Positions 1 to 21,525 of a DNA stretch of 29,304 nucleotides are shown here, piece after piece. Source of the stretch: a virus (taxonomy: Duplodnaviria; Caudoviricetes); IMG/VR virus record IMGVR_UViG_3300006867_000057, positions 1 through 29,304 of that record. One strand, written 5' to 3'. Below the pieces are notes generated by a model. It did no database searches. It was not told the origin of the DNA and worked only from the letters and a program-made list of their open reading frames with translations. The position numbers and the translations under genes were made by a program. Within the stretch, counting starts at the first letter, position 1, and every line of letters begins with the position of its first letter.

Positions 1-84
1 AAACGCCTCGCCAAATCCCATCTGCGGGCCAGGCGTCACCGCCGCCTGCAGCGCTAGCTCCGGGTTAGGCGCGAGCGACTGCAT
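1..84 (-). CDS. 5' end of a probable internal virion protein, running off the window edge
   Basis: ATG at 84, 6 nt after the stop of 91..2262; open frame MQSLAPNPELALQAAVTPGPQMGFGEAF to position 1; position in the virion gene cluster. Confidence 0.55.
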   Translation of the reverse strand, partial: MQSLAPNPELALQAAVTPGPQMGFGEAF

Positions 85-90
85 GCTGGG

Positions 91-2262: not shown

Positions 2263-2750
2263 CAGCGCATGCCGCCAATCATCTTGTATTGGAACGCACC
2301 GGCGGCAAGCGACCCTGCGGCGTTGAACATGCCGGTGGTCGCTGCGGTCCTGCCGGCCTGGCGGTAGATGTTGGCTTGGTACCGGCCGCCGGCTTCTGCG
2401 ATGCGCGCGTTTTCCTGCGCCAGCAGCGCGTTATCGACTTGCGTAGCGTAGTCCTGGTAGCCCTGGCTGATGTTTGCGTCGATCAGGCTGCCGGTGCTGC
2501 CGCTAAAAGGGTCCAGGCTGCCCTGCGCCGCGCGAGCGTTGATCGTCGCCAGGTTGCGGCGCATCGCGACCAGATGCTGCGTGCCTGCGTCTTTGTATGC
2601 GATAGCCTCTTGCCGCGCGCGCAGGGCGTCCGCCTTGCCTTGTATGGCCGCCATTTGCGCTTGCGCGTTGTACTGCGCCTGCGCTGCCTGACCCGCGCGG
2701 ATCTGACCCGCTGCAGAAAGGAGAGACGCTGCGACGAGTGCTACTTGCAC
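2262..2750 (-). CDS. Putative small internal virion protein (T7 gp14-like position), 162 aa
   Basis: Hydrophobic N-terminus, Ala/Gln-rich body and Gly-rich 'AAGSLAAGAFQY' C-terminus; immediately follows tail tubular B. Confidence 0.65.
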   Translation of the reverse strand: MQVALVAASLLSAAGQIRAGQAAQAQYNAQAQMAAIQGKADALRARQEAIAYKDAGTQHLVAMRRNLATINARAAQGSLDPFSGSTGSLIDANISQGYQDYATQVDNALLAQENARIAEAGGRYQANIYRQAGRTAATTGMFNAAGSLAAGAFQYKMIGGMR

Positions 2751-4729
2751 TACTGCCCCACACTTACTTTGTAGTCGAGACTCAGAAGGTGCAAAGCAAG
2801 CGGAACGGTCTGGCTAACCGTGATAGCGACCTCTTTGTTGAAGCCAAGCAACGGCCCGATTGTTTTGACGCCGGTAAACGGCGCGACTGCTGCGTCGAGG
2901 ACGCTTTCGCCAAACTGCCGAAACGCAACCAGCTGCCCGTTCACGCTCATGGCCTGGCTTTGGTAGACCTCGGCGTTGACCTCGAGGACGCGCTTGCGGA
3001 AGCCCTTAAGGTTGCCGCTCGCGAGGCGCGGCTCGAGCGGCATGGTCTTGACTGTGACTGTGTACGGCAGGCCAACCTGGTAGCTGGTCGTGCTGGCGCG
3101 GTCGAAGGTAACGGTTCCGCTTGCGACGGTTTTGTCGGCCTGCACCATGCCGTCCACAATTACGTTTAGGGACTTTGCCTCGAGGTGCGACGCCGAACCG
3201 GTTGCGCTGGCGCTGGCGCTGTAGACGCCGCTATCGGTCGTCAGCGACGGATCGAATAGCTCGACGTAGTACACGTCGGATCCGTTTACACTACGCTTCA
3301 CGATTGCGTAGGTGGTATCGACATCGACGCCGATAGCCTTGAACTCACCGTCGGTCGTGAAACGCGACGGCGCGACTACCTGCTGCGCGCGGAGCAGCGA
3401 GAAAACAGCAAGCGTGCCGTCTGTCGAGTTGACGATGAACAGGCGGTCAGCTTCTTCGGTTGATGTCGCGCGACGGATAGCCATATCCGTTGGCGCTTTG
3501 AGCAGGTGGCCCGACAGCAACGAGATATTCGCCGTCGTATAGCTCTGCTCGACGTCGGTAAAGAGCAGCTCGTTGAGCTGTTTACCCTGGCGCTGTACGA
3601 ACAGGGTTCCGCTGTCGAGCGCTGCGACGGGCACGCCTGGCTTAATCCCATTCCGCGTCGCGACTTTGGTCGTCAGGTTGGCCGGCGTAATGGGCTCCCC
3701 GACATTCTGTGGGATGTAGAACTCGCCTCCGCTCGTGAAGATCTGCAGGTCGCGGCCGCTGTGTATATCGACGATCTCGTTCAGCTGGTTAGTGGTCAGC
3801 GTCGCCGCAACAGCTCTGTCGTCTAGCCCCTCTCCGAAGTCGAAGTCGAAATAGCTGGACACGACGCTCCCGTAGAACGTCGTGGGCAGGCTTTTAGTGC
3901 CGCCGAAAAACAGCCTTCCTTCGTGGAATGTGACACTTTTTGGGTACCCGCGTCCGACACTCCAGGCGTCCTCGTAACCAGTCTCAAGCTCCCAATCGCC
4001 GCTTGCGATGGCCGTCGTGTCAAAGAACGCGACCTCCATGTACGCCTTGACGACTGTGCTGCTGACGTACTCGACGATGCGGCCGCGACCGAAAGTCTGC
4101 AGCGCATTTATGTATTGGCCGACGTTGCCGGCGCTAAATACGCCGGCGGACGCGGTGATCGTGACGTTGCCCGTCGCGGCGCTTGGCGTAATGGTCGCAG
4201 CCGGGTTGCTCGTGCTGGCGGTGTACGCGTACTGCGGCACGTTGTCGAACGCGATAGTGGTCGCGGTCCATGTACTATGGCTGCCGCCGCGCACGATCTT
4301 GAGTGGGGCTAGATCCTCGTGAACAAAGATGATCGTGTCGGCGGCCTGCGCATAGCGTAGGCGCGCGAGCATGCTGCTGGTGATCGAGCTGACAGCCAGG
4401 TAGTCGTTGCCGCTGCCGTTGATGTTTGTGACGAGAGCACCGTCGCGAAATATGTATATGCGCTGATTAACCAGCGCGAACATGTAGCTGTCATCCGTGT
4501 TGAACTCGAACGGCACGAGGCGCACGCCGTTCTGCGGCGCGGCGGCGGATGGAAGCTGGTATATGTACTTGAGGCCGTCGCGTCTCTTGGCGCCGCCCTG
4601 TGGCAAAATAAAGACGTTAGTCGCCGTTTCGAGCGCGTTGTAATACTGCTCTAAGTCGATGCGCGAGCGCAGGAGGGGGTCCATCTCGCCGGCGCTGAAA
4701 TTAGTCTGGATGCGAACGACACGGCTCAC
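2750..4729 (-). CDS. Tail tubular protein B / nozzle (T7 gp12 / P22 gp10-like)
   Basis: N-terminal 'QTNFSAGEMDP...R.D...Y', 'QGGAKRRDG' and 'GYPKSVTFHEGRLFFGG' motifs typical of this beta-propeller family; synteny. Confidence 0.85.
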   Translation of the reverse strand: MSRVVRIQTNFSAGEMDPLLRSRIDLEQYYNALETATNVFILPQGGAKRRDGLKYIYQLPSAAAPQNGVRLVPFEFNTDDSYMFALVNQRIYIFRDGALVTNINGSGNDYLAVSSITSSMLARLRYAQAADTIIFVHEDLAPLKIVRGGSHSTWTATTIAFDNVPQYAYTASTSNPAATITPSAATGNVTITASAGVFSAGNVGQYINALQTFGRGRIVEYVSSTVVKAYMEVAFFDTTAIASGDWELETGYEDAWSVGRGYPKSVTFHEGRLFFGGTKSLPTTFYGSVVSSYFDFDFGEGLDDRAVAATLTTNQLNEIVDIHSGRDLQIFTSGGEFYIPQNVGEPITPANLTTKVATRNGIKPGVPVAALDSGTLFVQRQGKQLNELLFTDVEQSYTTANISLLSGHLLKAPTDMAIRRATSTEEADRLFIVNSTDGTLAVFSLLRAQQVVAPSRFTTDGEFKAIGVDVDTTYAIVKRSVNGSDVYYVELFDPSLTTDSGVYSASASATGSASHLEAKSLNVIVDGMVQADKTVASGTVTFDRASTTSYQVGLPYTVTVKTMPLEPRLASGNLKGFRKRVLEVNAEVYQSQAMSVNGQLVAFRQFGESVLDAAVAPFTGVKTIGPLLGFNKEVAITVSQTVPLALHLLSLDYKVSVGQ

Positions 4730-5349
4730 GTCGCCCTCGCGCTAACGAGCGGGTAGTTAATGAAGGCTTGGGTCGGCTTGCTGCCGCCATCCGCGCTCAT
4801 GGCTACGCGCATCATGCCGCCGCGCATGTTTTCTGAGGGCGAGCCAGCCGCTAGCACCTGGAAGTATTGGGCCTTCGTGATTTGGTCCGTGACCGGTTCG
4901 GCGAAATGCCAGGCGAGCCAGTATTTCAGAAGCTGCACAAAGTAGGTCGGCATCACATCTTCGGAAGGCCGAAACTGATAGTCGATGTAGACGGTGCTGT
5001 AAGAAGTCAGCACATCGCGGCCGTAGACCTCCCAGCCGGTTGCGACCGGGCTTGTGCCGGTGCCGGCGCCAGGGAACAGCGCGCGCGGCCCACTGCCGAT
5101 CAGATCACTTGGCAACGGGTATGCGTAAAGCCACTCGTTTGTTGGCGCATCGACGCTGCGGGCCAGCTGCACCTTTTTGACGCTGAAGCTCCAGGGGTAG
5201 GACATCAGCACGATGTCGCGCAGGTCGTCGTAGAGCCTGTCGCAGGTTTGAGCTGCGTCGGTGCCTTCGGAGAATGAGGAAAGGGGCGAAGCCCCAAGCA
5301 TGATTAACGCGTCGGAGCAAATGCTGAGTTTTGTGTCGCCAGTTGCCAC
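4726..5349 (-). CDS. Tail tubular protein A / adaptor (T7 gp11-like)
   Basis: 'ICSDALIMLGA', 'YPWSF' and 'YAYPLPSD' motifs; 207 aa; directly upstream of tail tubular B. Confidence 0.85.
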   Translation of the reverse strand: MATGDTKLSICSDALIMLGASPLSSFSEGTDAAQTCDRLYDDLRDIVLMSYPWSFSVKKVQLARSVDAPTNEWLYAYPLPSDLIGSGPRALFPGAGTGTSPVATGWEVYGRDVLTSYSTVYIDYQFRPSEDVMPTYFVQLLKYWLAWHFAEPVTDQITKAQYFQVLAAGSPSENMRGGMMRVAMSADGGSKPTQAFINYPLVSARAT

Positions 5350-5356
5350 GCCGCGC

Positions 5357-5398
5357 CGCCCCTATTGGATAGGAGGCGGGGGAGCCGAAGCCCCCCCG
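5357..5398 (-). terminator. Stem-loops after the capsid genes (terminator or stabiliser, plus an SD-occluding hairpin)
   Basis: Minus-strand CGGGGGGGC-UUCG-GCUCCCCCG (5377-5398) and a second stem at 5357-5378; no U-tract. Confidence 0.5.
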
Positions 5399-5407
5399 TC
5401 GCCACAG

Positions 5408-5683
5408 TTAGTCGGTGTCGGTTTCGGCGATTACGGTGCCGTCCGAGCAATCAACGACGCCAGAGGCGTTACTGAGCACGATGCACCAATGCGCTGTCGG
5501 CGTGTTGCTGTCCACGACGAGGATAACGTCGCGCACAGACACTTCGTTCGACACGGCGTTGAAGTAGCCGCTCGCACGAACCGTCGCGATTGCGTCGGTC
5601 GAAGTGTAGGACCAGATCGCCGGAGCGCTGCCCTTCTTGGACTGGCCCCCGATGGGGTTCCAGCCAGATCTCGCAAATGCCAT
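5408..5683 (-). CDS. Small conserved virion-associated protein (possible head decoration), 91 aa
   Basis: ATG at 5683 with AGGGAG SD, 1 nt after the capsid stop; 'WSYTSTDAIATV..SGYFN' motif. Confidence 0.7.
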   Translation of the reverse strand: MAFARSGWNPIGGQSKKGSAPAIWSYTSTDAIATVRASGYFNAVSNEVSVRDVILVVDSNTPTAHWCIVLSNASGVVDCSDGTVIAETDTD

Positions 5684-5684
5684 C

Positions 5685-6539
5685 TTAGGACTCCCTGCAG
5701 GTGATTTTGACGATGCCGCCCGCCGTGGTGTCCTCGATGGCGACCGCGCCGGCACTGAACATCGAGCCGACCAGGAAGCTGGTTTTTTCGGGGACGTAAT
5801 CGACGCGCGACTGCTGGTTCATCGACATGCCAAGCCCAACGGCGTTCTTGTGGAACGCATAGGCGATGCGGTCGTTGGACCCGTCGATGGTCAGGCCGCC
5901 TTCGTCCATGTCGCCGATCACGACGATGCGAAAGCCCATGTAGGTGTTGACGCTGCCGTCGAGCAGATTGCGGGTTGACACGAAATCCACGCTGGTCGCC
6001 TGGGTTTCGCCAAGCAGCGCGTTGAGGCTGTTCGCATGGATCAGCAGCACGCGGTCAGAAGCCGGGACGTTGTTGGCGTTGAGCTTCTTCGCCGCTTCGC
6101 GGATCTTCGCGACATTCATGTCAGCAGCCGAGCCGCCCCCGCCAATGGTGTTGGCGACAGTGGCAGGCGTAGCCGCATCGAGCGCGTCGATGACGACCTG
6201 ATCCATGCGGCGACCGATTGCGTTGCCGACCAGCTCAACCAATTCCGCGCGGTCGTTAAAGTTGACGTGCGACTGGTTGAAGATGTCGGAATACTCGAAC
6301 GCACCGTAATCGACCATAGTCGCGGTTGCCTGCGAGTAGGTCGCGTTGATCGGAACAACGTCCGACTGCGGCGTCCGGATCGTCGCGGTGCCTTTGCCCA
6401 ATTTTGGGAACTTGACGGTAGATGCGCCTTGAGCGTCGCGTTCGCGGACGAGGCCGGCCAGCTTGCGCGTGGCCTGGTACTTCTGCTTAACCTCGGCGTC
6501 GAACAGCGTCGTGAAGGCGGTGCTCACGGAAAGAGCCAT
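5685..6539 (-). CDS. Major capsid protein
   Basis: 'F...FDAEVKQ.YQ', 'TVKFPKLGKG' and 'AIGRRMDQ.VIDAL' motifs; AGGAG SD; follows the scaffold gene. Confidence 0.9.
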   Translation of the reverse strand: MALSVSTAFTTLFDAEVKQKYQATRKLAGLVRERDAQGASTVKFPKLGKGTATIRTPQSDVVPINATYSQATATMVDYGAFEYSDIFNQSHVNFNDRAELVELVGNAIGRRMDQVVIDALDAATPATVANTIGGGGSAADMNVAKIREAAKKLNANNVPASDRVLLIHANSLNALLGETQATSVDFVSTRNLLDGSVNTYMGFRIVVIGDMDEGGLTIDGSNDRIAYAFHKNAVGLGMSMNQQSRVDYVPEKTSFLVGSMFSAGAVAIEDTTAGGIVKITCRES

Positions 6540-6675
6540 TGCTTCACTCCTAGTTGATGTTGCTGTTGTCTTGCGTCGGTTGTCCGCGTGGGCCGACTGG
6601 ATCTCTTGGCGCCGGCCTCGCGGTTATCGGCCTGCTCGTGCTAGCACAGTCTTGAGCCGAGCGCTGTAACCGAAA

Positions 6676-7497
6676 CTAGCCAGGGTATGCCTCGCCGTTC
6701 ATCTCGTAGACGAGGCGCTCGACCTTGCGCGTGTAGTCGCGGTCCTTCCCGTAGCGCGCGTCCGCCATCATGCTCTGCACCGTCACCATGTCGGCGCCGC
6801 CGGCGTCCTCGACGACGACGCTAGGCACGTCCCGCTCGTTGTAGGAGCGGCGTATCTTGTTGAGCGCGATGACCACATCGGCGCTCGTGCTGGCATCGGC
6901 GAGCGCCTCCAGCTCGCCCCTACTAATGACGCCGCTAGTCTGCAACCGTTGCAGCCACGCGTCGGTGCTCGCGATGATCTTGTCGCCGTTCCTGCCCAGG
7001 CGCTGCAACTCCTGGCTCCGCTGGTACTGCTGCTGGTCGGCGACAATGCCCTGCTGGTCGATGTAAAAACGCACCAGCTGCTCGTAGTCGCCCTGCGACA
7101 GCTTCATGTCGCGCGCCATCGCGTTAAAAGCGGTCAGGGCTTCGTCGTCAGGCGCAATCTCGACGCCCACATCTTCCAGGCTGTAATTGCCGTCCTTCGG
7201 CGCTTTATGCTTGCCGCTGTCCATTTTCGCCCGCAACTCGCGATATGAGTGCAGCAGCTTATCAGCCGCCAGCTCGCCCTTTTCCGCGTCCCAGAACTGC
7301 TCTGGCACGTCGTCTGGGCGTTGCGCTGCTGTTTCTGCCGCAGGGCGATCAGTCGTGATCTGGTCGTCGTCATCCGAAACAAATACAGGCGTCTCGTCGC
7401 TTGCCGGCGGCGCATCTGCTTGCTGTGTTGTGTTTCGGGATAGAAGGGGGGAGGTTTCATCGGCCGCTGGCGGGTTGTCGATGTTTTCAGTCATCAC
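6676..7497 (-). CDS. Capsid scaffolding protein
   Basis: Acidic N-terminus, 'RPDDVPEQFWD...L..SY.EL..K' motif and C-terminal 'MMADARY..D..Y..KVE'; upstream of the capsid gene. Confidence 0.8.
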   Translation of the reverse strand: MMTENIDNPPAADETSPLLSRNTTQQADAPPASDETPVFVSDDDDQITTDRPAAETAAQRPDDVPEQFWDAEKGELAADKLLHSYRELRAKMDSGKHKAPKDGNYSLEDVGVEIAPDDEALTAFNAMARDMKLSQGDYEQLVRFYIDQQGIVADQQQYQRSQELQRLGRNGDKIIASTDAWLQRLQTSGVISRGELEALADASTSADVVIALNKIRRSYNERDVPSVVVEDAGGADMVTVQSMMADARYGKDRDYTRKVERLVYEMNGEAYPG

Positions 7498-7744
7498 TCT
7501 CTCTGGCTCTTGTTATGCGACGCTCTATTTCTCGCACCAGGCTATTCTGGCCTTCGCGCGCGTACCCGTGGCTCGCGTCCTCGCCTGGGTACCAGGTGGG
7601 CTGCTCGATGGTGATGCCGCGCAGGTGCGCGAGCAGCTTCTTGCCGTCACGCGTCGAGAATACGCGCAAATGTAGCTTGTCCAGGTCGCTTGCCTGCTGC
7701 TTGGCAGGCGCGGGCGCGGTGCGGAGTAGCGCGTCCCACGTCAT
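7487..7744 (-). CDS. Conserved phage protein (Bbp19-like)
   Basis: 'VFST.DGKKLL..L...TIEQP.W.PG' and 'REGQNSLVREI' motifs between portal and scaffold; ATGA coupling at 7741-7744. Confidence 0.75.
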   Translation of the reverse strand: MTWDALLRTAPAPAKQQASDLDKLHLRVFSTRDGKKLLAHLRGITIEQPTWYPGEDASHGYAREGQNSLVREIERRITRARESDD

Positions 7745-7854
7745 TTGCGCCCGACCCAAAACAGGACAGCGGTGAGGAGCACGATCAGAGTTGCGCTGCC
7801 GAGCGCAATGTCGAGCACCATGCCGCCCACTAAGAAGTCGCCGCTAACGCCCAT
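7741..7854 (-). CDS. Small membrane peptide, 37 aa (not in the ORF track)
   Basis: MGVSGDFLVGGMVLDIALGSATLIVLLTAVLFWVGRK; fills the gap and overlaps both neighbours; one TM helix with a basic tail. Confidence 0.55.
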   Translation of the reverse strand: MGVSGDFLVGGMVLDIALGSATLIVLLTAVLFWVGRK

Positions 7855-8155
7855 CACTTTTCCCCTTGTTGCGCTTTGAGATCGCAGCAGCCTTGCGACG
7901 TGCATCGGCCTTCGAGCTTGCTCCCCAGGCCTGCAGCGACAGCAGCAAGCGAGTAGGCTTTCCGTTTTTGCGCTCTGGGCCGGGCATGTTGCCCATGCGC
8001 GCCAGAAACGAGGCGCGGCGCGGGTTGTCGCCAGCCTTGACCGGCGCTTTTAGGTCGCTGCCTGGGTTCTCGCGCTCGTAGGACCGGCGGCCCTTTTCGT
8101 TGAGGCCGCCCGCCGGGTTCTTGCCGGCCTTACGCGTCCAGGCTGCGGATTTCAT
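7844..8155 (-). CDS. Basic conserved phage protein (DUF6321-like)
   Basis: 'AWTRK.GKNP.GGLN.KGR.SY' and 'RRASF.ARM' motifs; ATGA overlap with the portal stop. Confidence 0.7.
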   Translation of the reverse strand: MKSAAWTRKAGKNPAGGLNEKGRRSYERENPGSDLKAPVKAGDNPRRASFLARMGNMPGPERKNGKPTRLLLSLQAWGASSKADARRKAAAISKRNKGKSDGR

Positions 8156-9690
8156 GCCGGCGGCGCCTCGGCTTGCTGTTGCTGCATGGCAGCCTCAGCC
8201 GCCTCCTGCATCTGCGCCATCATCGCGGCGCGCTCGTCTTGCGTCGTGAGCACGCGAGCCGGCACCCCGAGACGGTCAGCAATGAACGCCAGCGTGCGCT
8301 CTTGGTCGATTGCCATAGCGCCCATTGGCCCGAGCTGCTGCGCGATTTGCGCGAACTGCAGGATGCTCTCGAGCTCCTCGCTATTCTGCGCCTTCGCGAG
8401 CGGCGAGACAGGCACGACCTTGACCGCTTGACCATCGACGCGCAGCGGCATGTCGATCAGGTTTTCCTGGTCCATAACTTTCAAGATGCGACCGACAAGC
8501 GGCAGCATGCACTCTGTCATCATGCGGCCGAACGCCGCCCCCATATTCGCCGCCAGCTCCGACATGCGCGCGCCGATTTCGGTCGCGCTGCGCGCGCTCA
8601 TGGTGTCGGGCGGGAGGCTGTCGTCGAGCAGGACGCGCTTGATAGCCAGTGTCAGATCCTGAATCACGAGCTGCGTTAGGTTCACGTCGCCAGCGCGAGG
8701 CACAGGCGCAAGGCTGGGGCCGGATGGCCCACCGTTGCGCGCGACAGGGATGATAGCGCCAGGCTCGATGTTGATATTCTGCGGGTTCAGCACTCCGTCA
8801 TCGGCGGCTGTGTACATGCCTGCAATGTTGATGCTGGCGTTTTGCAGCAGCATGCGCTTCGTCGCGTTAAGCGTTTTGATGTCGGGCAGCGCAGTGACCA
8901 GCACGCCCCGCCCCATCGTCTCGCCGGCCGCGACCATGTAGCGCGACACGATCCAGGGCGAGCTGTTCAGCTCGCGATAAACCAGCTCCTCGCGCTGGTC
9001 CGGCCAGATCAGGTGGTAGCAGTAGTAGTCCTCGTCCGGCATGTAGACTGTCGCCTCGATCAGGTCTACTTCCTCAACCGGGTTCTCGACAAGCAACTGC
9101 TGCAGACGGTCCGGCAGCACAGCGTCAGGCCACTCCTGCTGCAGAGCTTCCACCTTGATACGGTGCTTGCGGTACACGTTGTCGATCTGGCCGTGCGGAC
9201 CGGCCTCGAGCGCGACAAGAAATTGCGGCACAGCCTCAAACCGCACAGGCGTCATCTCGTCGCCTGCGGATACTTTCATCACAGCCGTGCCGACTGCCAG
9301 GTCCAGCAAGAACTCGCTCATCGCCAGGTCGAAGTTAGTGCGACGCAGGACGGCAAACATACGCTCGTTGTAAATGTCGAGCGCTACTTGCAGGTCGTCG
9401 CGCTTGTCCTCTGGGATGTCGTCGCCGGCCACGAGTCGGCACCAATTACGGTACGGCGGAAAGATTGTGCTCTGCAGGCGGTTGGCGAAGCGCTGCGTCG
9501 AGCTGATCGCCGTGCTGTCGAACACGCGATCCATCTTGCTTTGGCCTGGCGAGCGGCCCTCGTAATAGCTGTAGAGGTTGCGCTGCGGAAGCGCGAACTC
9601 GTAGCACTCCTCGTAGATCGAGCGCCACTGCTCCTTGCGCGCCTGCGCGCGCTCGTAGCGCCGCAGCAGCTGGTCTACCGGTATCGGCAT
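8152..9690 (-). CDS. Portal protein / head-tail connector (T7 gp8 / Bbp21-like)
   Basis: 512 aa; 'W..IYEECYEFALPQR', 'FDSTA', 'GE..GRG....ALPDIKTLN', 'RSATEI' and 'SPLAKAQ' motifs. Confidence 0.92.
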   Translation of the reverse strand: MPIPVDQLLRRYERAQARKEQWRSIYEECYEFALPQRNLYSYYEGRSPGQSKMDRVFDSTAISSTQRFANRLQSTIFPPYRNWCRLVAGDDIPEDKRDDLQVALDIYNERMFAVLRRTNFDLAMSEFLLDLAVGTAVMKVSAGDEMTPVRFEAVPQFLVALEAGPHGQIDNVYRKHRIKVEALQQEWPDAVLPDRLQQLLVENPVEEVDLIEATVYMPDEDYYCYHLIWPDQREELVYRELNSSPWIVSRYMVAAGETMGRGVLVTALPDIKTLNATKRMLLQNASINIAGMYTAADDGVLNPQNINIEPGAIIPVARNGGPSGPSLAPVPRAGDVNLTQLVIQDLTLAIKRVLLDDSLPPDTMSARSATEIGARMSELAANMGAAFGRMMTECMLPLVGRILKVMDQENLIDMPLRVDGQAVKVVPVSPLAKAQNSEELESILQFAQIAQQLGPMGAMAIDQERTLAFIADRLGVPARVLTTQDERAAMMAQMQEAAEAAMQQQQAEAPPA

Positions 9691-9948
9691 CTAGCCTAGG
9701 GTTGACTTGAGGCCGAGCTGCGCGTCCGCACGATCCGGCGAAAGAAGCAGCCGCATGCCAGTGCCGCCCCGCGCTCTGCGGGACGACCGACGCGCGCGGT
9801 CAGCCGCTGCCGTTTTCTGCATTTCGGTTTTCTGCTGCGCCTCAGCGCGCTGCTCTTGCTTGACGACGATCTCCTCTTGCCGCTTCTGGCTCTCGGCGAT
9901 TGCCGGATCCGGCGGCGGCGGTTTCGGTTTCTTTAGGACTGCACCCAT
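9691..9948 (-). CDS. Small pre-portal virion-associated protein
   Basis: 'MG...KPKPPPP' start, coiled coil and 'LLLS...LG' end, typical of the gene preceding podovirus portals. Confidence 0.7.
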   Translation of the reverse strand: MGAVLKKPKPPPPDPAIAESQKRQEEIVVKQEQRAEAQQKTEMQKTAAADRARRSSRRARGGTGMRLLLSPDRADAQLGLKSTLG

Positions 9949-10423
9949 CGTCGTATAGCCTCGCCATCAGGTAGTAGTCGTCGCCAGTCGGCCCGTATCG
10001 GCGCATGACGCCTTCTTCCTCGAATTTAAGCCACTCAGCAAACCGGACGGCTGACGAGAATGATACCTGCACGCTCACCTGGCACCGGTGCAGCGCCATA
10101 GCGGTACCAACCTCGTCGAAATACTGGCGCGCAATCCGAGCCACAGATACCGCGTGGGTGCCAACGTGGCGGTCGCGCAGCATCCAGGCCTCGGCGTTGC
10201 CTTTGCAGTAGACGACCAAGCCCCAAGCCGCCCACACAATCCCATCGTACAGCGCGGCGTAGGCAGGCCCGGACGCCAGCTGCGACTCGAACTGCCGCAT
10301 CATGGAGGGGTCGGCGTCGAATAAGCGCTGCTGCAGCGGGTGCAGGCGCATGCCCCGTATATGCCGCATCTCGGCCCTAACACAGATGGCACCGCGCGGC
10401 AGGCGCGGCTTGAAGCCGTCCAT
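9842..10423 (-). CDS. GNAT-fold protein (T7 gp13-like)
   Basis: 'G.AEAW', 'AVRFAEWLKFEEEGVMRRYGPTGDDYYLMAR' GNAT motif B-like C-terminus; synteny before the portal. Confidence 0.7.
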   Translation of the reverse strand: MDGFKPRLPRGAICVRAEMRHIRGMRLHPLQQRLFDADPSMMRQFESQLASGPAYAALYDGIVWAAWGLVVYCKGNAEAWMLRDRHVGTHAVSVARIARQYFDEVGTAMALHRCQVSVQVSFSSAVRFAEWLKFEEEGVMRRYGPTGDDYYLMARLYDDGCSPKETETAAAGSGNRREPEAARGDRRQARAAR

Positions 10424-10447
10424 CAGCGCGCCTCACACGCGCGGGCG

Positions 10448-10687
10448 TCAGGTTTCATCAGCCGCATCGTACTCGTAGAAAACAATCAGCTTGCTCGCGC
10501 TCAAGTGTTCGGCCTCAACCGCCCTACAGTCCGGGCACGGCAGTTCGTCGACGGCATGGACGTTCGCATTGAAGATCGCGTACCAGTGCAGCCGACACGC
10601 CCGACACCTGAGCAGCGCAACACGCGAGCCGTCGTCATGGCTGTGTTGCCGTTTCTGCGCGAATGGGACGACGCGCAGGTCACTCAT
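10448..10687 (-). CDS. Small zinc-ribbon protein, 79 aa
   Basis: CRAC...CPDC pairs; ATG at 10687 overlaps the upstream gene end. Confidence 0.6.
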   Translation of the reverse strand: MSDLRVVPFAQKRQHSHDDGSRVALLRCRACRLHWYAIFNANVHAVDELPCPDCRAVEAEHLSASKLIVFYEYDAADET

Positions 10688-11015
10688 TGGTGATCGCGAT
10701 GTTCTTCTGGTGCGCCCGCGCCATCGCAAGCAGCGGCTCTTTCCACTGGGCCCAGAACCGCAGCGCGTCCCTCCCGTCCATGGCAAAAATCTGCTCGTCG
10801 GTGAACGCGGCCCATTCCTCAGTCCGGTGCACCTGGCAGCCGATTTTGATATGGGCGTCGGTCACCATCACCGGCCATGTTGAGCCGAAGATGAAAACAG
10901 GCGGAATCGTCGCTTTCTGGTCTTGGCCGAGGTCGGCATCCGCGACGCATGTCCGATGCGACGACCCCGTGGTGAAAACGACCGCGCCGTTTGCGAGGTC
11001 AACGATCTGTCTCAT
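10680..11015 (-). CDS. Protein resembling the C-terminal domain of phage pentapeptide-repeat proteins
   Basis: 'WPV.VT...IKIGCQ.H..EEW..F.D..I..MDG.DAL.FW.QWK..LLA' motif. Confidence 0.65.
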   Translation of the reverse strand: MRQIVDLANGAVVFTTGSSHRTCVADADLGQDQKATIPPVFIFGSTWPVMVTDAHIKIGCQVHRTEEWAAFTDEQIFAMDGRDALRFWAQWKEPLLAMARAHQKNIAITNE

Positions 11016-11112
11016 CGACGCCCCACGACCTGCGGTTCATTACGTCAAACTTCGTAAACTCACTCACTCGCCCTCGCAACTGCGTTTTAGCCATGCCGCC
11101 TCGCAAAAAAGT

Positions 11113-11141
11113 TTGAAAAAGCCAACAGGGGTAGTTAAGAT
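11113..11141 (+). promoter_or_regulatory. Sigma70-type promoter, antisense to the late operon
   Basis: TTGAAA (11113-11118), 17-bp spacer, TAAGAT (11136-11141); A-tract at 11105-11110. Confidence 0.65.
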
Positions 11142-11146
11142 TTGCA

Positions 11147-11210
11147 TACCTCCACTGTAGTAATCCTCCCATACCTCGCCGGCGGCCCACAAAGTCGCCG
11201 GCGTTTTCTT
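11147..11210 (+). ncRNA. Candidate ~63-nt small RNA with anti-SD motifs
   Basis: Lies between a consensus-like promoter and an intrinsic terminator; C/U-rich 5' half with ACCUCC, UCCUCCC and CAUACCUC. Confidence 0.55.
11177..11210 (+). terminator. Rho-independent terminator (plus strand)
   Basis: CGCCGGCGGC-CCACAAA-GTCGCCGGCG 10-bp stem followed by TTTTCTT; no U-tract in the minus orientation. Confidence 0.7.
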
Positions 11211-12756
11211 AGAGCACCCGGAAATCCATTTTGGCGCGCATCGGTTGCTGCGGCCGAACGTAGGCGCCACGGACGAGACGCCTGTGCTCGCCGCCGCCCA
11301 GCAGAAGATAGCCGAAGGCGTCGCCGACATGGCTGTGCTGATCCTTATGCGGCGCATCGCGGAACCTGTCAGTACCGCCGCTAATGCCGACGCGCTTGAA
11401 GTGATAACCGCCAGCCAGTGACTTGCGCAGGCGGCGGCAATCTTGGTGCACCAGCAGGCCAGGCTTGCCGTTGACGAGGCGCTGCATCGGTGCTGCCGCG
11501 CTTTCACGCCGCACCTGGAAGTCGTTGCTGGCCGTTGGCTGCGCGTGCAGGCCCAGGCTGCGCAGGTGGTCGAAGCTCGTCACCTCGAAGATCTGGTCGC
11601 GAGCGCCGCCTGCGGGGTCGCCCCATACCTCCGGCTTGCAACCGGAAAAGCGCGTGTTCAGCTCGTAGAGAAGGTGCTGCGCAAAGCGCTCGAGGCCCAT
11701 GTCCTCCGTGACCAGCTCGTGCAAAATATGCCAGGCGCCAGCTGCAGTGCGCTGGCCGAAAACGGCTGCAGGCGTCAGACCGAAGTCGAGGCCGACGTGG
11801 ACCGACGCAGACCTGTCTACCTCGATGCTGTCAGAAACCATCGTCACGTCGTCGTACTCCGGCCAGACGGGCCGGCCCTCCTTGACGAAAACGTACTGCC
11901 CCGCGACGTAGCAGGAGATCCAGTCTAGATCCTTGCCACCCAGCTGCTGCTCGTAGTAGCCCGGCGCCAGGTTGTTGATGTTCTCGGCCTTTGGATTGAC
12001 CTGCCACCACCTGCCGGCGCCAGGGACGGCATCCGGTGCGTCAGCCTCGACCTGCACCATGCCGGCCGGCTGCTTGAAGAAAGTCCACTTGTACCGGCCG
12101 CCAATGGGCTCCTTCTCCGCCAGGCGGTACCACCAATGGTCGTCGTCCATCGGGTTCGTGTCGGCCCAGATGCCGCGCCACGGAGCGCCGCCGTTCGCCT
12201 TGGTAGGGTAGCGGCCTACACGATGCGTGAGCCCCTGGACAACAGCCAGCGGCAGTTCGCGCGCCTCGTTGATCCAAGCCCCCGTCAGCTCGAGCGACAG
12301 CAGCTTGCGCACGTCCTTCGGCTTGTCGAGCGCAAGAAAAATAACTTCGCAGTCGAGGCCAGGCACGCCGTCGCGCGGCGGCAACTGCAGGTGATGCGTG
12401 ATCGGCGGCGACCAGCGCAGCGGCCCCCAGCGGTTCTCGGGGAAAAGATCTGTCCACGTCTTGAGCGTAGTGGTGCGCAGCTCCGGATAGCTGTTGCGCA
12501 CCACAACGAAGCGGGAGTAGCGCGTGTTGTCTAGCGGGCTTGGCGGCTGTTTCGCCGCACGCAACAGCACCTCAGCGGCGCACGCGTAGCTCTTGCCGCT
12601 GCCGACCGGTCCGAGCAGGCCGCGAAAGAAGCTGTCGTCCTGCAGGAAGCGCCAGGTCGTAGCCGACTGCGAGAAGTCCAGGTCAAGGCTCTCGAGCGGA
12701 TCGGCCTCAGCAACGCGCTTGCGGCGAGGGCTGCGATCAGTATTCGACCTAGCCAC
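11209..12756 (-). CDS. terL: Terminase large subunit
   Basis: Walker A GPVGSGKS, Walker B WINEARE, 'DTNP' motif, nuclease 'GLDFGLTPA' and 'SHVGDA'; GTG start at 12756 preferred, frame open to 12774. Confidence 0.92.
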   Translation of the reverse strand: MARSNTDRSPRRKRVAEADPLESLDLDFSQSATTWRFLQDDSFFRGLLGPVGSGKSYACAAEVLLRAAKQPPSPLDNTRYSRFVVVRNSYPELRTTTLKTWTDLFPENRWGPLRWSPPITHHLQLPPRDGVPGLDCEVIFLALDKPKDVRKLLSLELTGAWINEARELPLAVVQGLTHRVGRYPTKANGGAPWRGIWADTNPMDDDHWWYRLAEKEPIGGRYKWTFFKQPAGMVQVEADAPDAVPGAGRWWQVNPKAENINNLAPGYYEQQLGGKDLDWISCYVAGQYVFVKEGRPVWPEYDDVTMVSDSIEVDRSASVHVGLDFGLTPAAVFGQRTAAGAWHILHELVTEDMGLERFAQHLLYELNTRFSGCKPEVWGDPAGGARDQIFEVTSFDHLRSLGLHAQPTASNDFQVRRESAAAPMQRLVNGKPGLLVHQDCRRLRKSLAGGYHFKRVGISGGTDRFRDAPHKDQHSHVGDAFGYLLLGGGEHRRLVRGAYVRPQQPMRAKMDFRVL

Positions 12757-12982
12757 GCCGCACCCCGATCCCATCCGCCGGCACCACTTCTAGCTCGTGG
12801 TCGAGCGCCAACAGCAGCGCCTGCACCGTAGCTACGTTAGCCGCGCGCTGGTTGAGCTCGATGCGCAAAACTGTAAGCGGGTGCACGTCAGCCTGCGCCG
12901 CCAGCTCGTTGCGGCTCCAGCCGCGCTCCTCCCGCAGCTCCCGTACCACGGCGCCGAGCCAGCTAATCGGTACTGGCGTCAT
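12749..12982 (-). CDS. XRE/Cro-family HTH protein, 77 aa
   Basis: 'VRELREERGWSRNELAAQADVHPLTVLRIE' HTH_3 signature. Confidence 0.8.
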   Translation of the reverse strand: MTPVPISWLGAVVRELREERGWSRNELAAQADVHPLTVLRIELNQRAANVATVQALLLALDHELEVVPADGIGVRRG

Positions 12983-13367
12983 CGTCCACAACCTCGTAGC
13001 CCACGACCTCCGGCCCACGCAAGTTAATGCCGATCAGAGCCGGCCTGCGGCTATCCGCCTGCGGCTCGAGCAGCTGGTGGTGCTTAGCCAGCAGGCGAAG
13101 CGCTGCGTGCTTGTCGTGCAGCTCGACCTCGATGCTGTTGCCAAATTGGTTGGGAGTGACGCGCACCTTTTTGATAGCCTTGCGCGCGCGAACATCGAGC
13201 GCATCAGACGCCAGAAACGTCACGCGCCCCAAGGCGTCCCAGCTCAGCACATCAGTGATCTCAGCCGCCGCTATCGCGCGCAGCTCGTCCAGCACCACCT
13301 GGCGCTGCGCCTCGTCGTCAGATGCCAGCGCAGCTCGCGCCTTGCGCACGGTCAGCTTGTCACTCAT
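12963..13367 (-). CDS. terS: Terminase small subunit
   Basis: 'VLDELRAIA...ITDVLSWD' and 'IEVELHDK..AL.LLAKH' oligomerisation-type motifs; upstream of terL. Confidence 0.7.
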   Translation of the reverse strand: MSDKLTVRKARAALASDDEAQRQVVLDELRAIAAAEITDVLSWDALGRVTFLASDALDVRARKAIKKVRVTPNQFGNSIEVELHDKHAALRLLAKHHQLLEPQADSRRPALIGINLRGPEVVGYEVVDDDASTD

Positions 13368-13641
13368 GCGCCAGCTCGCGCGCCAGGTCCAGGTAGGCCG
13401 CCGCGTCGCAGTAGTCATCGGGGTTGAAGCCGCCGAGCTGCGTGCGCGCAACCTTGAGCAGAGCCATCATCAGCGCCACGTCGGCTGGCGTCAGCTCTGC
13501 CCCAGGCTCGCGCCTGATGCGCAAATAGGCGTTCCACAGAGCCGCGATGTTGGCGTGGTTCAGCTCGTAGTCGCCATGCTGTTTCGCGCGGTCGCCAGTG
13601 ATGAGGCCTAGCGCTGCCTCGAGCGTGCGGCCGACCGTCAT
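13360..13641 (-). CDS. DUF6378-like protein
   Basis: 'GDR...HGD...N...IA.LW.AYL', 'DVA.MM.LLKVAR' and 'D.Y.D..AY' motifs. Confidence 0.8.
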   Translation of the reverse strand: MTVGRTLEAALGLITGDRAKQHGDYELNHANIAALWNAYLRIRREPGAELTPADVALMMALLKVARTQLGGFNPDDYCDAAAYLDLARELAHE

Positions 13642-13898
13642 AGCGGCAACAGCTCCCGGTGGCAGGCGCCGCAGTGCACGCCGCCCCCGACGCGCCGGCC
13701 CCGCGTCTGCGCGCCGCAGAAGTCGCAGGTACGATGTTGCTCCCAAAAACGCGCAACTATTTCCTGCGGCGGCCCCCCAGCAGACGCGCGGGGGCGGGGG
13801 GGCCGGGGGGCGGCCCCGGCCGCGAGCGCTCGATGGCCCCGGGCGGGGTCGTCGCGGCGGCTTTCGGGCTCGACGCCGGCGTCATCGGAGGCTTGCAT
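13638..13898 (-). CDS. Hypothetical protein with C-terminal Zn finger
   Basis: ATG at 13898 after GGGTGAGAG; CDFC...CGAC; ATGA overlap with the next gene; N-terminal half overlaps a G/C-run element. Confidence 0.5.
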   Translation of the reverse strand: MQASDDAGVEPESRRDDPARGHRALAAGAAPRPPRPRASAGGPPQEIVARFWEQHRTCDFCGAQTRGRRVGGGVHCGACHRELLPL

Positions 13899-13927
13899 AT
13901 CTCTCACCCTGGTTTGAGTTTTGTATT

Positions 13928-14593
13928 TTACAGCAAGCCTGCCCATTTCGCGACCTGCATCAGCGTCGATGGCGGCGAGCGCCGGGCCTCGAGCGCCGCC
14001 TGGCACGCCGCGATGGTGTACTCGCGGATCTCCGCTGGGCTGCGGCCGGCGACGACCAGGAGCGCGGCAGCTGCGAGCTGTGGCTCGAGGAGCCGGTGCT
14101 GGCCGGCGGCCGCAGCGCCGGCGACGAAGGCGCCAGCCACGCGTTTCTGCAACTCCGTGTCGATCCCCCGGACCCCCTCTTCGTTATCGCCAGCAGCATT
14201 GTCGTCGTCCGGCTCGGCTATCACAGCCGGCACCGGCGCGTAAATCTCCTCGCGGCTCGGCACCGGCGTCTCGGCGCCCTGGTAGAGCACCTGCCACCTC
14301 GGCGTCAGCCCGCGTCCTTTGCGCTTGATATGCCTCGGGTACGGCTTGTAGGCGAGCTTTCTGATGTAGCCCATATTCCGCAGCGCCGGCATGTAGCGCT
14401 CGACTGTTGCGCGGTGACAGCCTACATGCCGCGCCAGCGTCAGATAGCTGGGCCACGCAATGCCGGCCGCATTGGTGTGGAGGCACAACGCCGCCAGGAT
14501 CCGCAACTGCGTCAGCGTCAGCGCTTCGTCTTGCACTGCGCGCGCCGGCAGCACGGAGTAGAGCCTGGTCGCTGGCTTCTCGGCGTCACTCAT
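13928..14593 (-). CDS. Winged-HTH (HTH_36-like) replication or regulatory protein
   Basis: 'L.IL.ALC.HTN..G.AWPS..TLA...G..R.TV......L...GYI' motif. Confidence 0.75.
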   Translation of the reverse strand: MSDAEKPATRLYSVLPARAVQDEALTLTQLRILAALCLHTNAAGIAWPSYLTLARHVGCHRATVERYMPALRNMGYIRKLAYKPYPRHIKRKGRGLTPRWQVLYQGAETPVPSREEIYAPVPAVIAEPDDDNAAGDNEEGVRGIDTELQKRVAGAFVAGAAAAGQHRLLEPQLAAAALLVVAGRSPAEIREYTIAACQAALEARRSPPSTLMQVAKWAGLL

Positions 14594-14738
14594 CGGCTAG
14601 CACCTCGCCGGAGCCCAGGCACACGTCGCACTCGACGCGCTCATCCCGCGTCTCACTAACGCGGAACAGCACATAGCCGCGACCGGCGCACTCGCTGCAT
14701 GCCTCATAGCCTGCCGGCTCCTCAGAACGGTATGTCAT
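14586..14738 (-). CDS. Small DnaJ-type Zn-finger protein, 50 aa
   Basis: CSECAGRG and CDVCLGSG (two CxxCxGxG); overlaps both neighbours. Confidence 0.7.
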   Translation of the reverse strand: MTYRSEEPAGYEACSECAGRGYVLFRVSETRDERVECDVCLGSGEVLADE

Positions 14739-15225
14739 CAGATGGCAACTCGCGGACGCGATGCCCTTCCGGGCCGGGTGAACCAAACACCTTGAATGTC
14801 TCGAGCACGATTGCAGGCAGGTGCTGGATCGCCGTGTCCACATGCACGCGGACAGCGCCCTCTGGCAGGTCTGGCAGGCTGGCACCTGGCTGGTACAGAG
14901 CCACCGCAAAGCCATCCGGGTGCATACCGACGAACACCGCCTCGCCAGGCGGCAGCTGCCCCGTGCCCCGCGCGGCCGCGTCGAGGGCTATCCATGCGCG
15001 CCGCATGCCGCCGGCCGCCGCGCTGATGCCGGCCTGGTCGCCCGCCGCCAGTGCAGCGTTCAGCCGCTCGAGCTGCTGGTTGAACTTGGCGGCCAGATCT
15101 TGTCCTGCCGCGAGGCACAGCCTGTCAGCCGTGCCCCAGGCCGTCTCGATGCGATGCGCTACCCGGTCTAGCTCACGCACCGCGACCTCAGCCGGCGGCG
15201 CAAATGGATCTTCATCTTGCCTCAT
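14722..15225 (-). CDS. Hypothetical replication-module protein ending in DDIPF
   Basis: 'LD.VA..IE..WG..DRL' motif; follows the primase-helicase; ATG at 15225 preferred. Confidence 0.7.
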   Translation of the reverse strand: MRQDEDPFAPPAEVAVRELDRVAHRIETAWGTADRLCLAAGQDLAAKFNQQLERLNAALAAGDQAGISAAAGGMRRAWIALDAAARGTGQLPPGEAVFVGMHPDGFAVALYQPGASLPDLPEGAVRVHVDTAIQHLPAIVLETFKVFGSPGPEGHRVRELPSDDIPF

Positions 15226-17826: not shown

Positions 17827-18181
17827 CTGTAGTCTCCTCGCTTGGGTTCGCCGGATATCTCTGCGGAAGGCCAGCCCACCGGCACAGGCTGGCGAAAGTG
17901 TCGAAGGGCATGACGACCAGGCTGTCGCGCTGATCGTCGCGCACGAACAGCAGGTCGCTTCCGCCGCCTTGCTCGAGCGCCTGGTACAGGCTGCTGTAGC
18001 TGCGCTTGCGTCGCTTGCACTCGGCTGTCATCCCAGCCAGCTGCAGGTCGCCCTTGAAGCCTTGGGCGGCGCCGCTCAGCGGCACGCGCTTGCACTCGAT
18101 GCCGATAGCCCGGATCTGCTGCCGTATCTCGCGCTCGAACGCGCTGCCTTTCCTGCGCGCGCCGGCGCCGCTAACGCTCAC
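17819..18181 (-). CDS. Hjc-like Holliday junction resolvase (PD-(D/E)XK)
   Basis: 'RKGSAFERE', 'RVPLSGA', 'KGDL' and 'ECKRRK' motifs. Confidence 0.85.
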   Translation of the reverse strand: MSVSGAGARRKGSAFEREIRQQIRAIGIECKRVPLSGAAQGFKGDLQLAGMTAECKRRKRSYSSLYQALEQGGGSDLLFVRDDQRDSLVVMPFDTFASLCRWAGLPQRYPANPSEETTDV

Positions 18182-18384
18182 TGGTAGCCTGCGCTTCTGA
18201 TCACTGCGTCAGCCGCCCTGGCGCGACTGCGCTCGCGGAGGCCTCGCTCCAGCAGCTCCTCAGCAAGGCTGCTCTGACTGCGGCGCTCGAACGCTGCAGC
18301 CGCTGCCAAAGCCTCGCAGCAGGCAGTCGATAAGTGCAGGTGCTTGCCGATCAGGGCCCGTAAGGGCTTGTTTTTAATAGCCAT
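18178..18384 (-). CDS. Ribbon-helix-helix (Arc/CopG-like) regulator
   Basis: Alternating strand 'KHLHLS', a helix, then 'ERRSQSSLAEELLERGL'; first gene of the leftward operon. Confidence 0.65.
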   Translation of the reverse strand: MAIKNKPLRALIGKHLHLSTACCEALAAAAAFERRSQSSLAEELLERGLRERSRARAADAVIRSAGYQ

Positions 18385-18496
18385 TCTGCCCCGACATTTT
18401 TATTAAAAAAAAGTACCGTTAGGGTATTGCAAAGGTACCGCCACGGTATTACGTTGCAAGGGTAAGTTTGCAGTACCCAAACGGTGGAGGAGAGAT
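18385..18496. promoter_or_regulatory. Divergent control region with a rightward promoter and repeated operators
   Basis: AT-rich; TTGCAA (18427-18432), 17 bp, TACGTT (18450-18455); TACC-N5-GGT dyads at 18413-18428, 18435-18450 and 18473-18487. Confidence 0.7.
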
Positions 18497-18976
18497 ATGG
18501 AAGCCAGACTCTGGGTAACGACCTACGCGAAGTACAATGCCGGCACGCTGATCGGGAAGTGGTTTGATCTTGACGAGTACGCGAGCCGGGACGAGTTCCT
18601 GGCGGCTGCGACGGCTTATGTCGCAGAAGCGGACCCCGAGCTGATGTTCTGCGACTACGAAGGGTTCCCGGCTGCCTGGTACTGCGAAAGCAGTGCGCCG
18701 CCGGACGAGCTGTGGGACTGGCTGGAAATGAGCGATGAGGATAAGGCGCTCGCCAAGCTGCTCGCAGAAGTCGGCATCAACATGGAGCCAGGCGACGCGA
18801 TGATCTTCGAAGGAAGCGCCGAGAACTACGCGGCCGAGCTAGTGGCCGATTGCTACGACCTGCCAGAGATTGCTGAGCGGTACTTCGACTACGAGGCCTT
18901 CGCTCGCGACTTGGTGCTAGGGGGCGACATAGTTGAGCTGGCGCCTGATGTTTGGCTAACAAACCCGAACGGCTAG
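18497..18976 (+). CDS. ardA: Antirestriction protein ArdA (DNA mimic)
   Basis: 'V.TYAKYNAG.L.GKW.DL', 'DPELMF.DYEGFP' and 'YFDYEAFARDL' motifs; very acidic; GGAGG SD. Confidence 0.92.
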   Translation: MEARLWVTTYAKYNAGTLIGKWFDLDEYASRDEFLAAATAYVAEADPELMFCDYEGFPAAWYCESSAPPDELWDWLEMSDEDKALAKLLAEVGINMEPGDAMIFEGSAENYAAELVADCYDLPEIAERYFDYEAFARDLVLGGDIVELAPDVWLTNPNG

Positions 18977-18986
18977 GAGGAGAGAT

Positions 18987-19262
18987 ATGAGCTACGAAAA
19001 AGGCGTGACCGAAAAGTACGGCTGGATCATTGACAAGGATTGCTGCGACGAAGCTGCCGGAGCGACCGGCGTAACAGGCCCAGTTGGCGGGCTCACAGTG
19101 GCACCCGGCGAGGGTGAAAAGTTCGAGCTGTACGACGACGACGAGAACCTGATGGCAAAGGGACGGATCGTTGGCGACTTTACCGGCTTCGAGCCCCTCG
19201 ATGATATTGGAATGGGGTACTGGGGCTGCACGTTGATTTCTTATGGTGGGGAATACCTATGA
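18987..19262 (+). CDS. Small acidic hypothetical protein, 91 aa
   Basis: Strong SD; 'FELYDDD.....G......GFEPLDD.G...GCT.I.Y' motif. Confidence 0.75.
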   Translation: MSYEKGVTEKYGWIIDKDCCDEAAGATGVTGPVGGLTVAPGEGEKFELYDDDENLMAKGRIVGDFTGFEPLDDIGMGYWGCTLISYGGEYL

Positions 19263-19432
19263 GCTACGAAACATGCAGGTGCGGCAGCGGAGAGGTTGCT
19301 CGCTGGGTAAAGGACGCTCGCGGGATACCAGTCGCCAAATGCTGCCGCGACTGCGAGGCCGACAAGCTAAAGGGCTACAGACGCGAGATATTTACGGACC
19401 CGAACTACTGGACTGACGAGCCAGTCGAGTAG
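19259..19432 (+). CDS. Small Cys-rich protein, 57 aa (not in the ORF track)
   Basis: MSYETCRCGSGEVARWVKDARGIPVAKCCRDCEADKLKGYRREIFTDPNYWTDEPVE; ATGA overlap with the upstream stop. Confidence 0.7.
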   Translation: MSYETCRCGSGEVARWVKDARGIPVAKCCRDCEADKLKGYRREIFTDPNYWTDEPVE

Positions 19433-19475
19433 TGGCTTGATTATGCAGAACTCAATAGGTACATAAGGCATAGAT

Positions 19476-20081: not shown

Positions 20082-20092
20082 GAGGAGGAACC

Positions 20093-21438: not shown

Positions 21439-21440
21439 GG

Positions 21441-21489
21441 CGCAGAAATGCTGAGCAAAACTGCACGCAGAATTGCTGAGCAACACTGC
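21441..21489. repeat. Two tandem palindromic sites (24-bp repeats, 25-bp period)
   Basis: CGCAGAAATGCTGAGCAAAACTGC (21441-21464) and CGCAGAATTGCTGAGCAACACTGC (21466-21489); 22/24 identical. Confidence 0.8.
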
Positions 21490-21525
21490 GATAGCTTTTG
21501 TGCGGAACCTGAGTACAAGAGAGGT

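Follow-up and report, generated by a model that had tools for sequence, protein, structure and literature searches.

The gap behind the terminase large subunit gene (terL) of a podophage-type virus record very probably holds a real sRNA gene, which we regard as a phage-borne variant of the alphaproteobacterial anti-Shine-Dalgarno (anti-SD) kind. The analysis shows the anatomy of the unit, which is kept while the sequence changes, its occurrence in only some relatives at a single junction, and the likeness of the units of relatives to host suhB RNAs. We further propose, as a moderately probable reading, that the predicted RNA is of the suhB/MmgR (alpha-R8) type, comes from a host and acts in trans as a broad anti-SD sRNA. 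In what follows, the window is the whole stretch of DNA that was analysed, a 29.3-kb record (29,304 nucleotides) that CheckV estimates to be 84% complete.

Architecture of the unit behind terL

The unit lies on the plus strand and is convergent with terL (11209–12756, minus strand; phrog_2, E 1e-22). An A-tract at 11105–11110, 5' of the −35 and possibly UP-element-like, is followed by a sigma70-type promoter-like site at 11113–11141 (−35 at 11113–11118, a 17 nt spacer, −10 at 11136–11141). The spacing to the −10 suggests transcription from A11148, which would give an sRNA of approximately 63 nt (11148–11210). This carries two anti-SD motifs, CCUCC at 11149–11153 and a second at 11164–11170, ahead of an intrinsic terminator at 11177–11210 that consists of a 10 bp stem, nine pairs of which are G-C, with a 7 nt loop (11177–11203) and a U-rich tail (11204–11210) overlapping the terL stop codon. 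The promoter hexamers, A-tract, stem and tail all agree with the sequence as the initial annotation had described them.

Positions 1–15000 of the window contain a single promoter-like site (a match of at least 9/12), against a mean of 2.5 in shuffled sequences; taken alone, the promoter is therefore at chance level. The terminator ranks best of 17 in the same interval. A 64 nt RNA folds at −20.3 kcal/mol (z = −4.1), with none of 200 shuffles as good. The 5' 30 nt of the predicted RNA are unpaired, and both anti-SD motifs are accessible, with an unpaired probability of 0.97–0.98. Two copies of a further 8-mer that had been assigned to the unit are both present, but with the start placed at A11148 the first (11145–11152) lies partly outside the RNA; the final base of the second (11170–11177) is the first base of the terminator stem.

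The unit had also been described as free of any credible ORF. A 63-aa minus-strand ORF that spans it has no PHROG or Pfam match. The strand opposite the unit does carry an SD followed by a GTG start and a 6-codon ORF (11135–11155, minus strand). This ORF, on the late-gene strand, is the candidate target if the RNA acts in cis, as considered below. In one metatranscriptome run (0.06 share) the sole contig covers 11369–11543, within terL, and so has no bearing on the unit.

Genome context and probable host

The long minus-strand arm of the genome runs from a ribbon-helix-helix gene through replication and terminase to the head and tail genes, and the plus-strand arm contains ardA, a serine recombinase, a tyrosine integrase, a YqaJ nuclease and a LexA-type DNA-binding gene. 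The window TerL is 62% identical to that of Methylophilales phage MEP301 and 40–44% identical to those of Pelagibacter and BcepC6B-like phages. A 34-kb contig in a Rhodospirillales MAG (G008) is largely syntenic with the window, and a Hyphomicrobiales MAG (G007) contains a related prophage integrated between mazG and tatD/metG, 2.5 kb from hfq (gene names from ORF lists). Because of these relatives we infer an alphaproteobacterial host for the window phage. The G007 prophage (C36, ~63500–100200; L137 and L139), situated 2.5 kb from hfq-hflX, also contains the serine recombinase, together with an additional ORF for a tyrosine recombinase (L137:9610–10524) that does not match the window integrase at E 1e-3.

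Between the unit and the gene that in relatives comes next after terL, the window has three small overlapping ORFs of 31, 111 and 79 aa (10448–11094, minus strand). The 111-aa ORF matches phrog_31567 and the 79-aa ORF carries two CxxC pairs; none of the three has a match in relatives G001, G002, G007 or G008. The conserved next gene (9842–10423, minus strand) matches phrog_4177 (unknown), weakly matches phrog_308 (internal virion protein) and has no Pfam match; its product is presumably acetyltransferase-like, a label that we take from the annotation adjoining terL in phage MEP301. In other relatives (L050–L056, L058, L059, L062, L063, L068 and L075) the gap directly behind the terL stop has, by eye, a late-strand promoter-like site instead, and for this reason the junction after terL looks like a control point in the group.

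Conservation and patchy distribution

A covariance model, R1, made from six relatives with the window left out and only roughly calibrated, has its top match in the 29.3-kb window at 11113–11211, that is from the −35 to the tail (30.8 bits, E 2.4e-4). In a first scan of 80 terL relatives, three are identical to the window and four (79–81% identity) have the same anatomy right behind the terL stop. An automatic signature, defined as an A-run, a GC hairpin and an anti-SD motif behind terL, is present in 11 of the 89 loci with enough flank, the three window-identical loci being left out. A neighbour-gene search, in which 11 of the 91 loci supplied had no terL, gives 40 distinct terL junctions, with the window's own counted, and 13 of them carry the signature in antisense orientation. 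The unit is thus conserved in the post-terL gap of related phages, with its sequence changing and its anatomy kept. Six further units recognized by eye (L317, L322, L324, L330, L337 and L338) are displaced by inserted genes, have a longer hairpin or, in one case, lack the U-tail. Unrelated loci made up 4 of the 11 in a first pattern scan and 2 of the 3 in a second.

In most types a −10-like hexamer, often with a −35, is found a short fixed distance ahead of the anti-SD motif. It occurs in three reading frames relative to the opposite-strand start codon, which argues that the constraint acts on DNA and not on protein, and in the L113 lineage L319 and L321 no longer have an ATG that is situated at a distance of 20 nt, with the −10 and anti-SD motif both kept. 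The stem is nearly invariant among the six close relatives, where we find no compensatory change; between lineages the stem sequence differs, yet it pairs in each fold.

On a terL tree of 39 sequences the unit occurs in three unconnected parts. L120 carries it, whereas in its sister L045 (support 0.96) the next gene follows terL without a unit between them. Moron-like cassettes have their own promoter and terminator and are present or absent at one junction among relatives. L120 and L045 differ in just this manner, with promoter and terminator predicted, and the patchy presence on the tree is what gain or loss of a cassette would produce, as for an RNA-only moron. R1 finds the L120 unit at 22.7 bits but misses the L113-type unit; run with default filters it finds no unit in 82 other loci, and distant units score at most 17.4 bits amid chance matches of similar score. 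As R1 misses the L113 type and scores the distant units so low, the units may represent several independent captures and not one family.

One candidate, L114, was rejected and is uncounted: at 2304–2420 an antisense −10, a hairpin with a C-rich loop and a U-rich tail lie in the start of the gene after terL, but they are inside coding sequence and there is no anti-SD motif. It is possibly a coding-overlapped variant of the unit. In L004 (3790–3830) one extra base, compared with L087/L109, shifts the frame at the beginning of the gene that follows the unit, reflecting either truncation or an assembly error.

Likeness to host suhB RNAs

Rfam gives one chance miRNA match only across the whole window, and five weak matches of at most 14 bits, with no family at cut-off, for the unit alone; the window unit does not match suhB (RF00519) at E ≤ 10. 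Seven of the relatives' units do match suhB, at 20.4–28.9 bits against a cut-off of 41, and in the reverse search host-type suhB copies are matched at 13–27.5 bits. Two host suhB copies align with the relatives' units in core, linker and stem. A chromosomal suhB-like copy in G008 (39.9 bits) closely resembles the L004/L109 type in core, linker and the start of the stem, and its core aligns with the second anti-SD motif of the window. In G007, the host of the prophage, hfq is found along with a suhB copy on the chromosome at 69.7 bits; hfq is present in the host MAGs of the relatives.

As outlined in PMC12559287, the features that define the alpha-R8 family are a terminator and a 10-nt core, which is unpaired and preceded by a weak hairpin. 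The window matches the core UUUCCUCCCU at 7/10 positions, all of them in unpaired sequence, and the relatives match it at 7–9/10. A Rho-independent terminator just 3' of the core is present in the window, but the weak hairpin 5' of it is absent, the 5' arm being unpaired; L120 and L339 have this hairpin and agree with the definition nearly in full. From its terminator, its 7/10 core and the likeness of the relatives to host suhB, we consider that the window RNA is built like alpha-R8 and probably descends from an alpha-R8 RNA, although it is not filed as a member. The initial annotation had placed the unit among alphaproteobacterial anti-SD sRNAs with AbcR and the cuckoo RNAs in mind; the kind stands, but suhB/MmgR is the family nearest to it.

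When terminators with the stem of the relatives were scanned for, at least 120 loci were obtained, or 95 after dereplication. Among the matches listed, an anti-SD motif lies within 23 nt of the stem in 22/95, compared with a shuffled mean of 6.4 (maximum 13) and 3 for the opposite motif, and 3 of 20 loci checked, again among the matches listed, are true suhB/MmgR RNAs. As anti-SD motifs ahead of such terminators are this common, the suhB likeness may be partly convergent.

A divergent switch with candidate repressors

The initial annotation had remarked that no CI-type repressor is visible. PHROG and Pfam searches indeed find no classical CI in the window, but other candidates are present. An Arc/CopG-like ribbon-helix-helix gene (18178–18384, minus strand; PF07878 at E 2e-4, which is below cut-off, and phrog_3431 at E 6e-4) is the first gene of the replication/late arm, faces ardA and starts without an SD. 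Three operator-like inverted repeats lie ahead of ardA within 18413–18487 (18413–18427, 18435–18449 and 18473–18487), with a promoter-like site at 18427–18455 among them. A LexA-type DNA-binding domain gene (23903–24118, plus strand; PF01726, E 2e-12) is another candidate, and an HTH_3 DNA-binding gene is present too. Judged by position only, the ribbon-helix-helix protein would be the one to bind the repeats.

The stretch 18385–18496 has the look of a compact divergent switch without a CI gene. Its repeats are 22 bp apart, a spacing also seen in L279, L281, L284, L285 and G008, and two or three repeats occur at the same place in five relatives. A further operator-like site (19448–19462) is situated ahead of the SprT-like gene.

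The switch region (18413–18487) is the second match of R1 in the window, as it also is in G008 and L285. When unit promoters were examined for operator-like sites, 5/17 gave p < 0.05, although the promoter was wrongly picked for L313, L327, L363 and L337, and one of the five as well as the combined p were set aside. The clearest sites are those of L004/L316 (p 0.006) and L022/L308 (p 0.002), with weaker ones in L338 and L322. The window sRNA promoter itself has no significant operator (p 0.19; rank 122 of 29290); its best ungapped match falls in the ardA leader (23/36 as a raw count).

Possible antisense action on late mRNA

The foremost alternative is a cis-antisense brake on late mRNA at the terL junction in the manner of P22 Sar, lambda OOP and aQ. 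Such an RNA would hide the SD and start of a short re-start ORF, or draw RNase III, with head genes delayed until shut-off by the ribbon-helix-helix protein. We think this unlikely, although it accounts for several features. Perfect complementarity to the late mRNA is automatic, and an antisense anti-SD motif necessarily creates an SD on the late strand. An ATG, GTG or TTG follows this SD motif at 3–12 nt in 10 of 15 sequence types, where a rough reckoning (three start codons over ten positions) gives a chance rate of ~40% per motif. In the clade closest to the window (L022/L106, L087/L109 and L108) the short ORF runs at its end into the start of the next gene, and in L120 and L363 the SD precedes a possible start of the next gene itself. 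In relatives without the unit, terL mostly abuts or overlaps the next gene. In the long late arm most genes depend on start and stop codons that overlap, and with a strong SD at only 3/36 of its starts translational coupling is likely to matter. The operator-like sites in the L316 and L308 promoters also fit a timed brake of this sort.

Other observations stand against it. Five of the 15 types (L113/L319–321, L323, L330, L337 and L339) have no start codon behind the SD, the 6-codon ORF of the window ends ~40 nt before the next start and is uncoupled, and there is no common frame between the short ORFs and the −10 motif. An RNA acting in cis would need no fixed sequence, yet the core matches that of the trans-acting host suhB, and the window promoter is without a clear operator. 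The short ORF over the unit could be a Sar-like target, or could simply restore translation after insertion of the cassette.

It is less likely still, and in our view quite improbable, that no working RNA is made, with the hairpin and U-run serving only to keep antisense transcription from running into terL and the SD-like motif only re-starting late-strand translation. The chance-level promoter and the SD with a start codon in most types speak for this. Against it are the −10-like hexamer kept in most types at a fixed short distance ahead of the motif and the R1 match that spans promoter to tail; nor does it fit the five types without a usable start, or the enrichment of anti-SD motifs ahead of such terminators (22/95 among the matches listed against a shuffled mean of 6.4).

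Predicted pairing with ardA, integrase and host mRNAs

The initial annotation had suggested an RNA that silences the early arm or host mRNAs, and had noted complementarity to ardA and integrase and the absence of a visible CI-type repressor. In its specific form this would mean that ardA and integrase of the phage itself are silenced in place of repression by CI. The complementarities are present: 10 bp (one G-U) with the ardA SD region (18481–18490, plus strand), 8 bp with the integrase start (21521–21528, plus strand) and three GGAGGA sites. We scored 47 hand-set phage start regions by contiguous helices, a measure that replaced full-duplex energies as these had put terL first through loose G-rich pairing. 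The ardA match (−16.5 kcal/mol) is the best of the 47. It also exceeds every one of the 190 start regions scored, from crude gene calls, in the host of a relative, among which the best reaches −11.9 kcal/mol. Neither match goes beyond chance, however. With the anti-SD cores fixed and the flanks shuffled, 129/1000 RNAs reach the ardA energy and 373/1000 a 10-bp helix, and a perfect 8-mer to some start, as seen at integrase, occurs in 1136/2000 shuffled trials.

Starts of the plus arm do pair better than those of the minus arm (p 0.003), which is in line with the count of strong SDs, 5/11 in the ardA arm (18497–24118) vs 3/36 in the late arm. A generic SD by-catch on the strong-SD phage mRNAs of the ardA arm is possible. 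Specific pairing is not kept in a relative. L279 and L280 overlap G001 at 99.8–99.95% and so provide the early arm of the L022-type phage, whose own RNA pairs over 6 bp (−8.2 kcal/mol) with its ardA start and at −4.1 kcal/mol with its integrase start. The RNAs of L004 and L087, on the other hand, pair over 13–14 bp with the window ardA and the next gene, at least as well as the window's own RNA, which shows that such matches arise between non-cognate pairs. A comparison of cognate with non-cognate pairs in G008, G007, G001 and L279, using automatic starts that are crude and in some cases wrong, gives no signal of co-evolution.

The lack of a classical CI would leave a role for such silencing, but with candidate protein repressors and operator-like repeats at hand the RNA is not needed to repress the ardA arm. 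Moreover, were one repressor shared by both promoters, the RNA would be made together with ArdA, which makes it a poor fit as a silencer of ardA. We do not uphold the specific silencing of ardA and integrase, and consider it very unlikely. The faintest prospect of all is a decoy that mimics the host alpha-R8 RNA to soak up Hfq or a CrfA-like sponge without repressing mRNAs: the core is common to the unit and host suhB, CrfA pairs with the alpha-R8 core as outlined in PMC12559287, and phage VpdS competes for Hfq according to the summary in PMC12197685, but the window core differs from the alpha-R8 10-mer at 3/10 positions.

A proposed trans-acting RNA of host origin

We favour a trans-acting RNA. 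A plausible sequence of events is that a cassette probably captured from an alphaproteobacterial host would give rise to the ~63-nt RNA from the predicted start at A11148, and that its unpaired CCUCC/CUCCC motifs would pair in trans with the SD sites of many mRNAs, mainly those of the host. Repression would come about by SD occlusion, presumably with the use of Hfq through the U-tail. By analogy with SuhB and AbcR, host transport and carbon-storage mRNAs would be the targets, and the strong-SD mRNAs of the ardA arm would be affected only as generic by-catch. As some relatives' promoters carry a copy of the switch operator, the unit may be expressed at an early stage or during lysogeny, and be shut off by the ribbon-helix-helix protein.

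Several observations weigh against trans action. The window unit is without a suhB match, has a 7/10 core and lacks the 5' hairpin, and no strong host target is found among the start regions scored. The start codon behind the SD in 10/15 types and the ORF overlap in the closest clade fit a role in cis; cis and trans action could both operate. It is conceivable, although doubtful, that alphaproteobacterial temperate podophages have repeatedly captured a host RNA of the suhB/MmgR type as an RNA-only auxiliary gene at the junction after terL, in some lineages wired to the phage's own switch operator, with which they lower host nutrient receptors and carbon storage and also brake the late mRNA that it overlaps.

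If the trans-acting RNA is real, a regulator of host type with links to PHB storage and TonB-dependent receptors is present in these phages as a 60-nt copy, which neither gene callers nor Rfam would reveal. In the literature searched, which was mostly open-access, we find no report of an alpha-R8-like RNA in an alphaproteobacterial phage, and the phage sRNAs met there are mostly from enterobacterial, Vibrio and Pseudomonas phages.

Comparison with known small RNAs

Among phage RNAs, P22 Sar, lambda OOP and aQ are antisense RNAs, and Sar blocks translation initiation, as summarized in PMC12197685. From that account, Sar and OOP resemble the unit in being 60–80 nt long, with their own promoter, and antisense inside a phage operon. 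However, Sar, OOP and aQ are described as acting on the regulator genes ant, cII and Q, whereas the unit overlaps the terL junction and in several types has no start codon to act on. In its described function, the prophage sRNA svsR of E. coli NC-SV, which lowers host transport genes and limits other phages (outlined in PMC12803456), offers a parallel to the role proposed here, although in another host class.

AbcR1/2 (alpha-r15) have two independent anti-SD motifs that act on many SD sites, as outlined in PMC8844928. In that outline they have three stem-loops over 114–121 nt with aSD1 in the first loop, whereas the unit is ~63 nt long with one stem-loop. The cuckoo RNAs are described in PMC4615179 as having 2–4 hairpins with the motif in each loop. 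As so described, the cuckoo/CcsR/NfeR1 group (alpha-r14) needs CCUCCUCCC in 2–4 loops, and the unit has one hairpin whose loop is without the motif. The unit thus differs from both groups in placing its motifs in an unpaired 5' arm ahead of a single hairpin, and it has no Rfam match to either. Four of the variants seen by eye, L337 (1395–1498), L338 (1400–1501), L322 (273–388) and L317 (near 600–700), have anti-SD motifs in hairpin loops including the terminator loop and are closer to the cuckoo build; the terminator loop of L337 has the full alpha-R8 10-mer. SorX (RF02784), SorY (RF02651) and BjrC1505 (RF02356) share with the unit an anti-SD motif just ahead of the terminator. The L113- and L120-type units match them weakly, at 22–27 bits against cut-offs of 46.6, 111 and 50 bits respectively, and the window unit does not match them.

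The closest likeness is to suhB/MmgR (RF00519), which includes Caulobacter SisA-D and Sphingopyxis SuhB. As outlined in 10.64898/2025.12.09.693200, Sphingopyxis SuhB acts with Hfq and binds the SD to repress thnR, phbB and the gene of a TonB-dependent receptor, and MmgR limits PHB according to the outline in PMC7143759. The window unit differs from this family in being phage-borne and antisense at the terL junction, and in its two anti-SD motifs and different stem. The mechanism that we propose is not itself new, but is a known one in a new setting. Like the suhB/MmgR RNAs, which are ~55–95 nt long, the unit has an unpaired CU-rich anti-SD core, which a GC-rich intrinsic terminator follows within a few bases.
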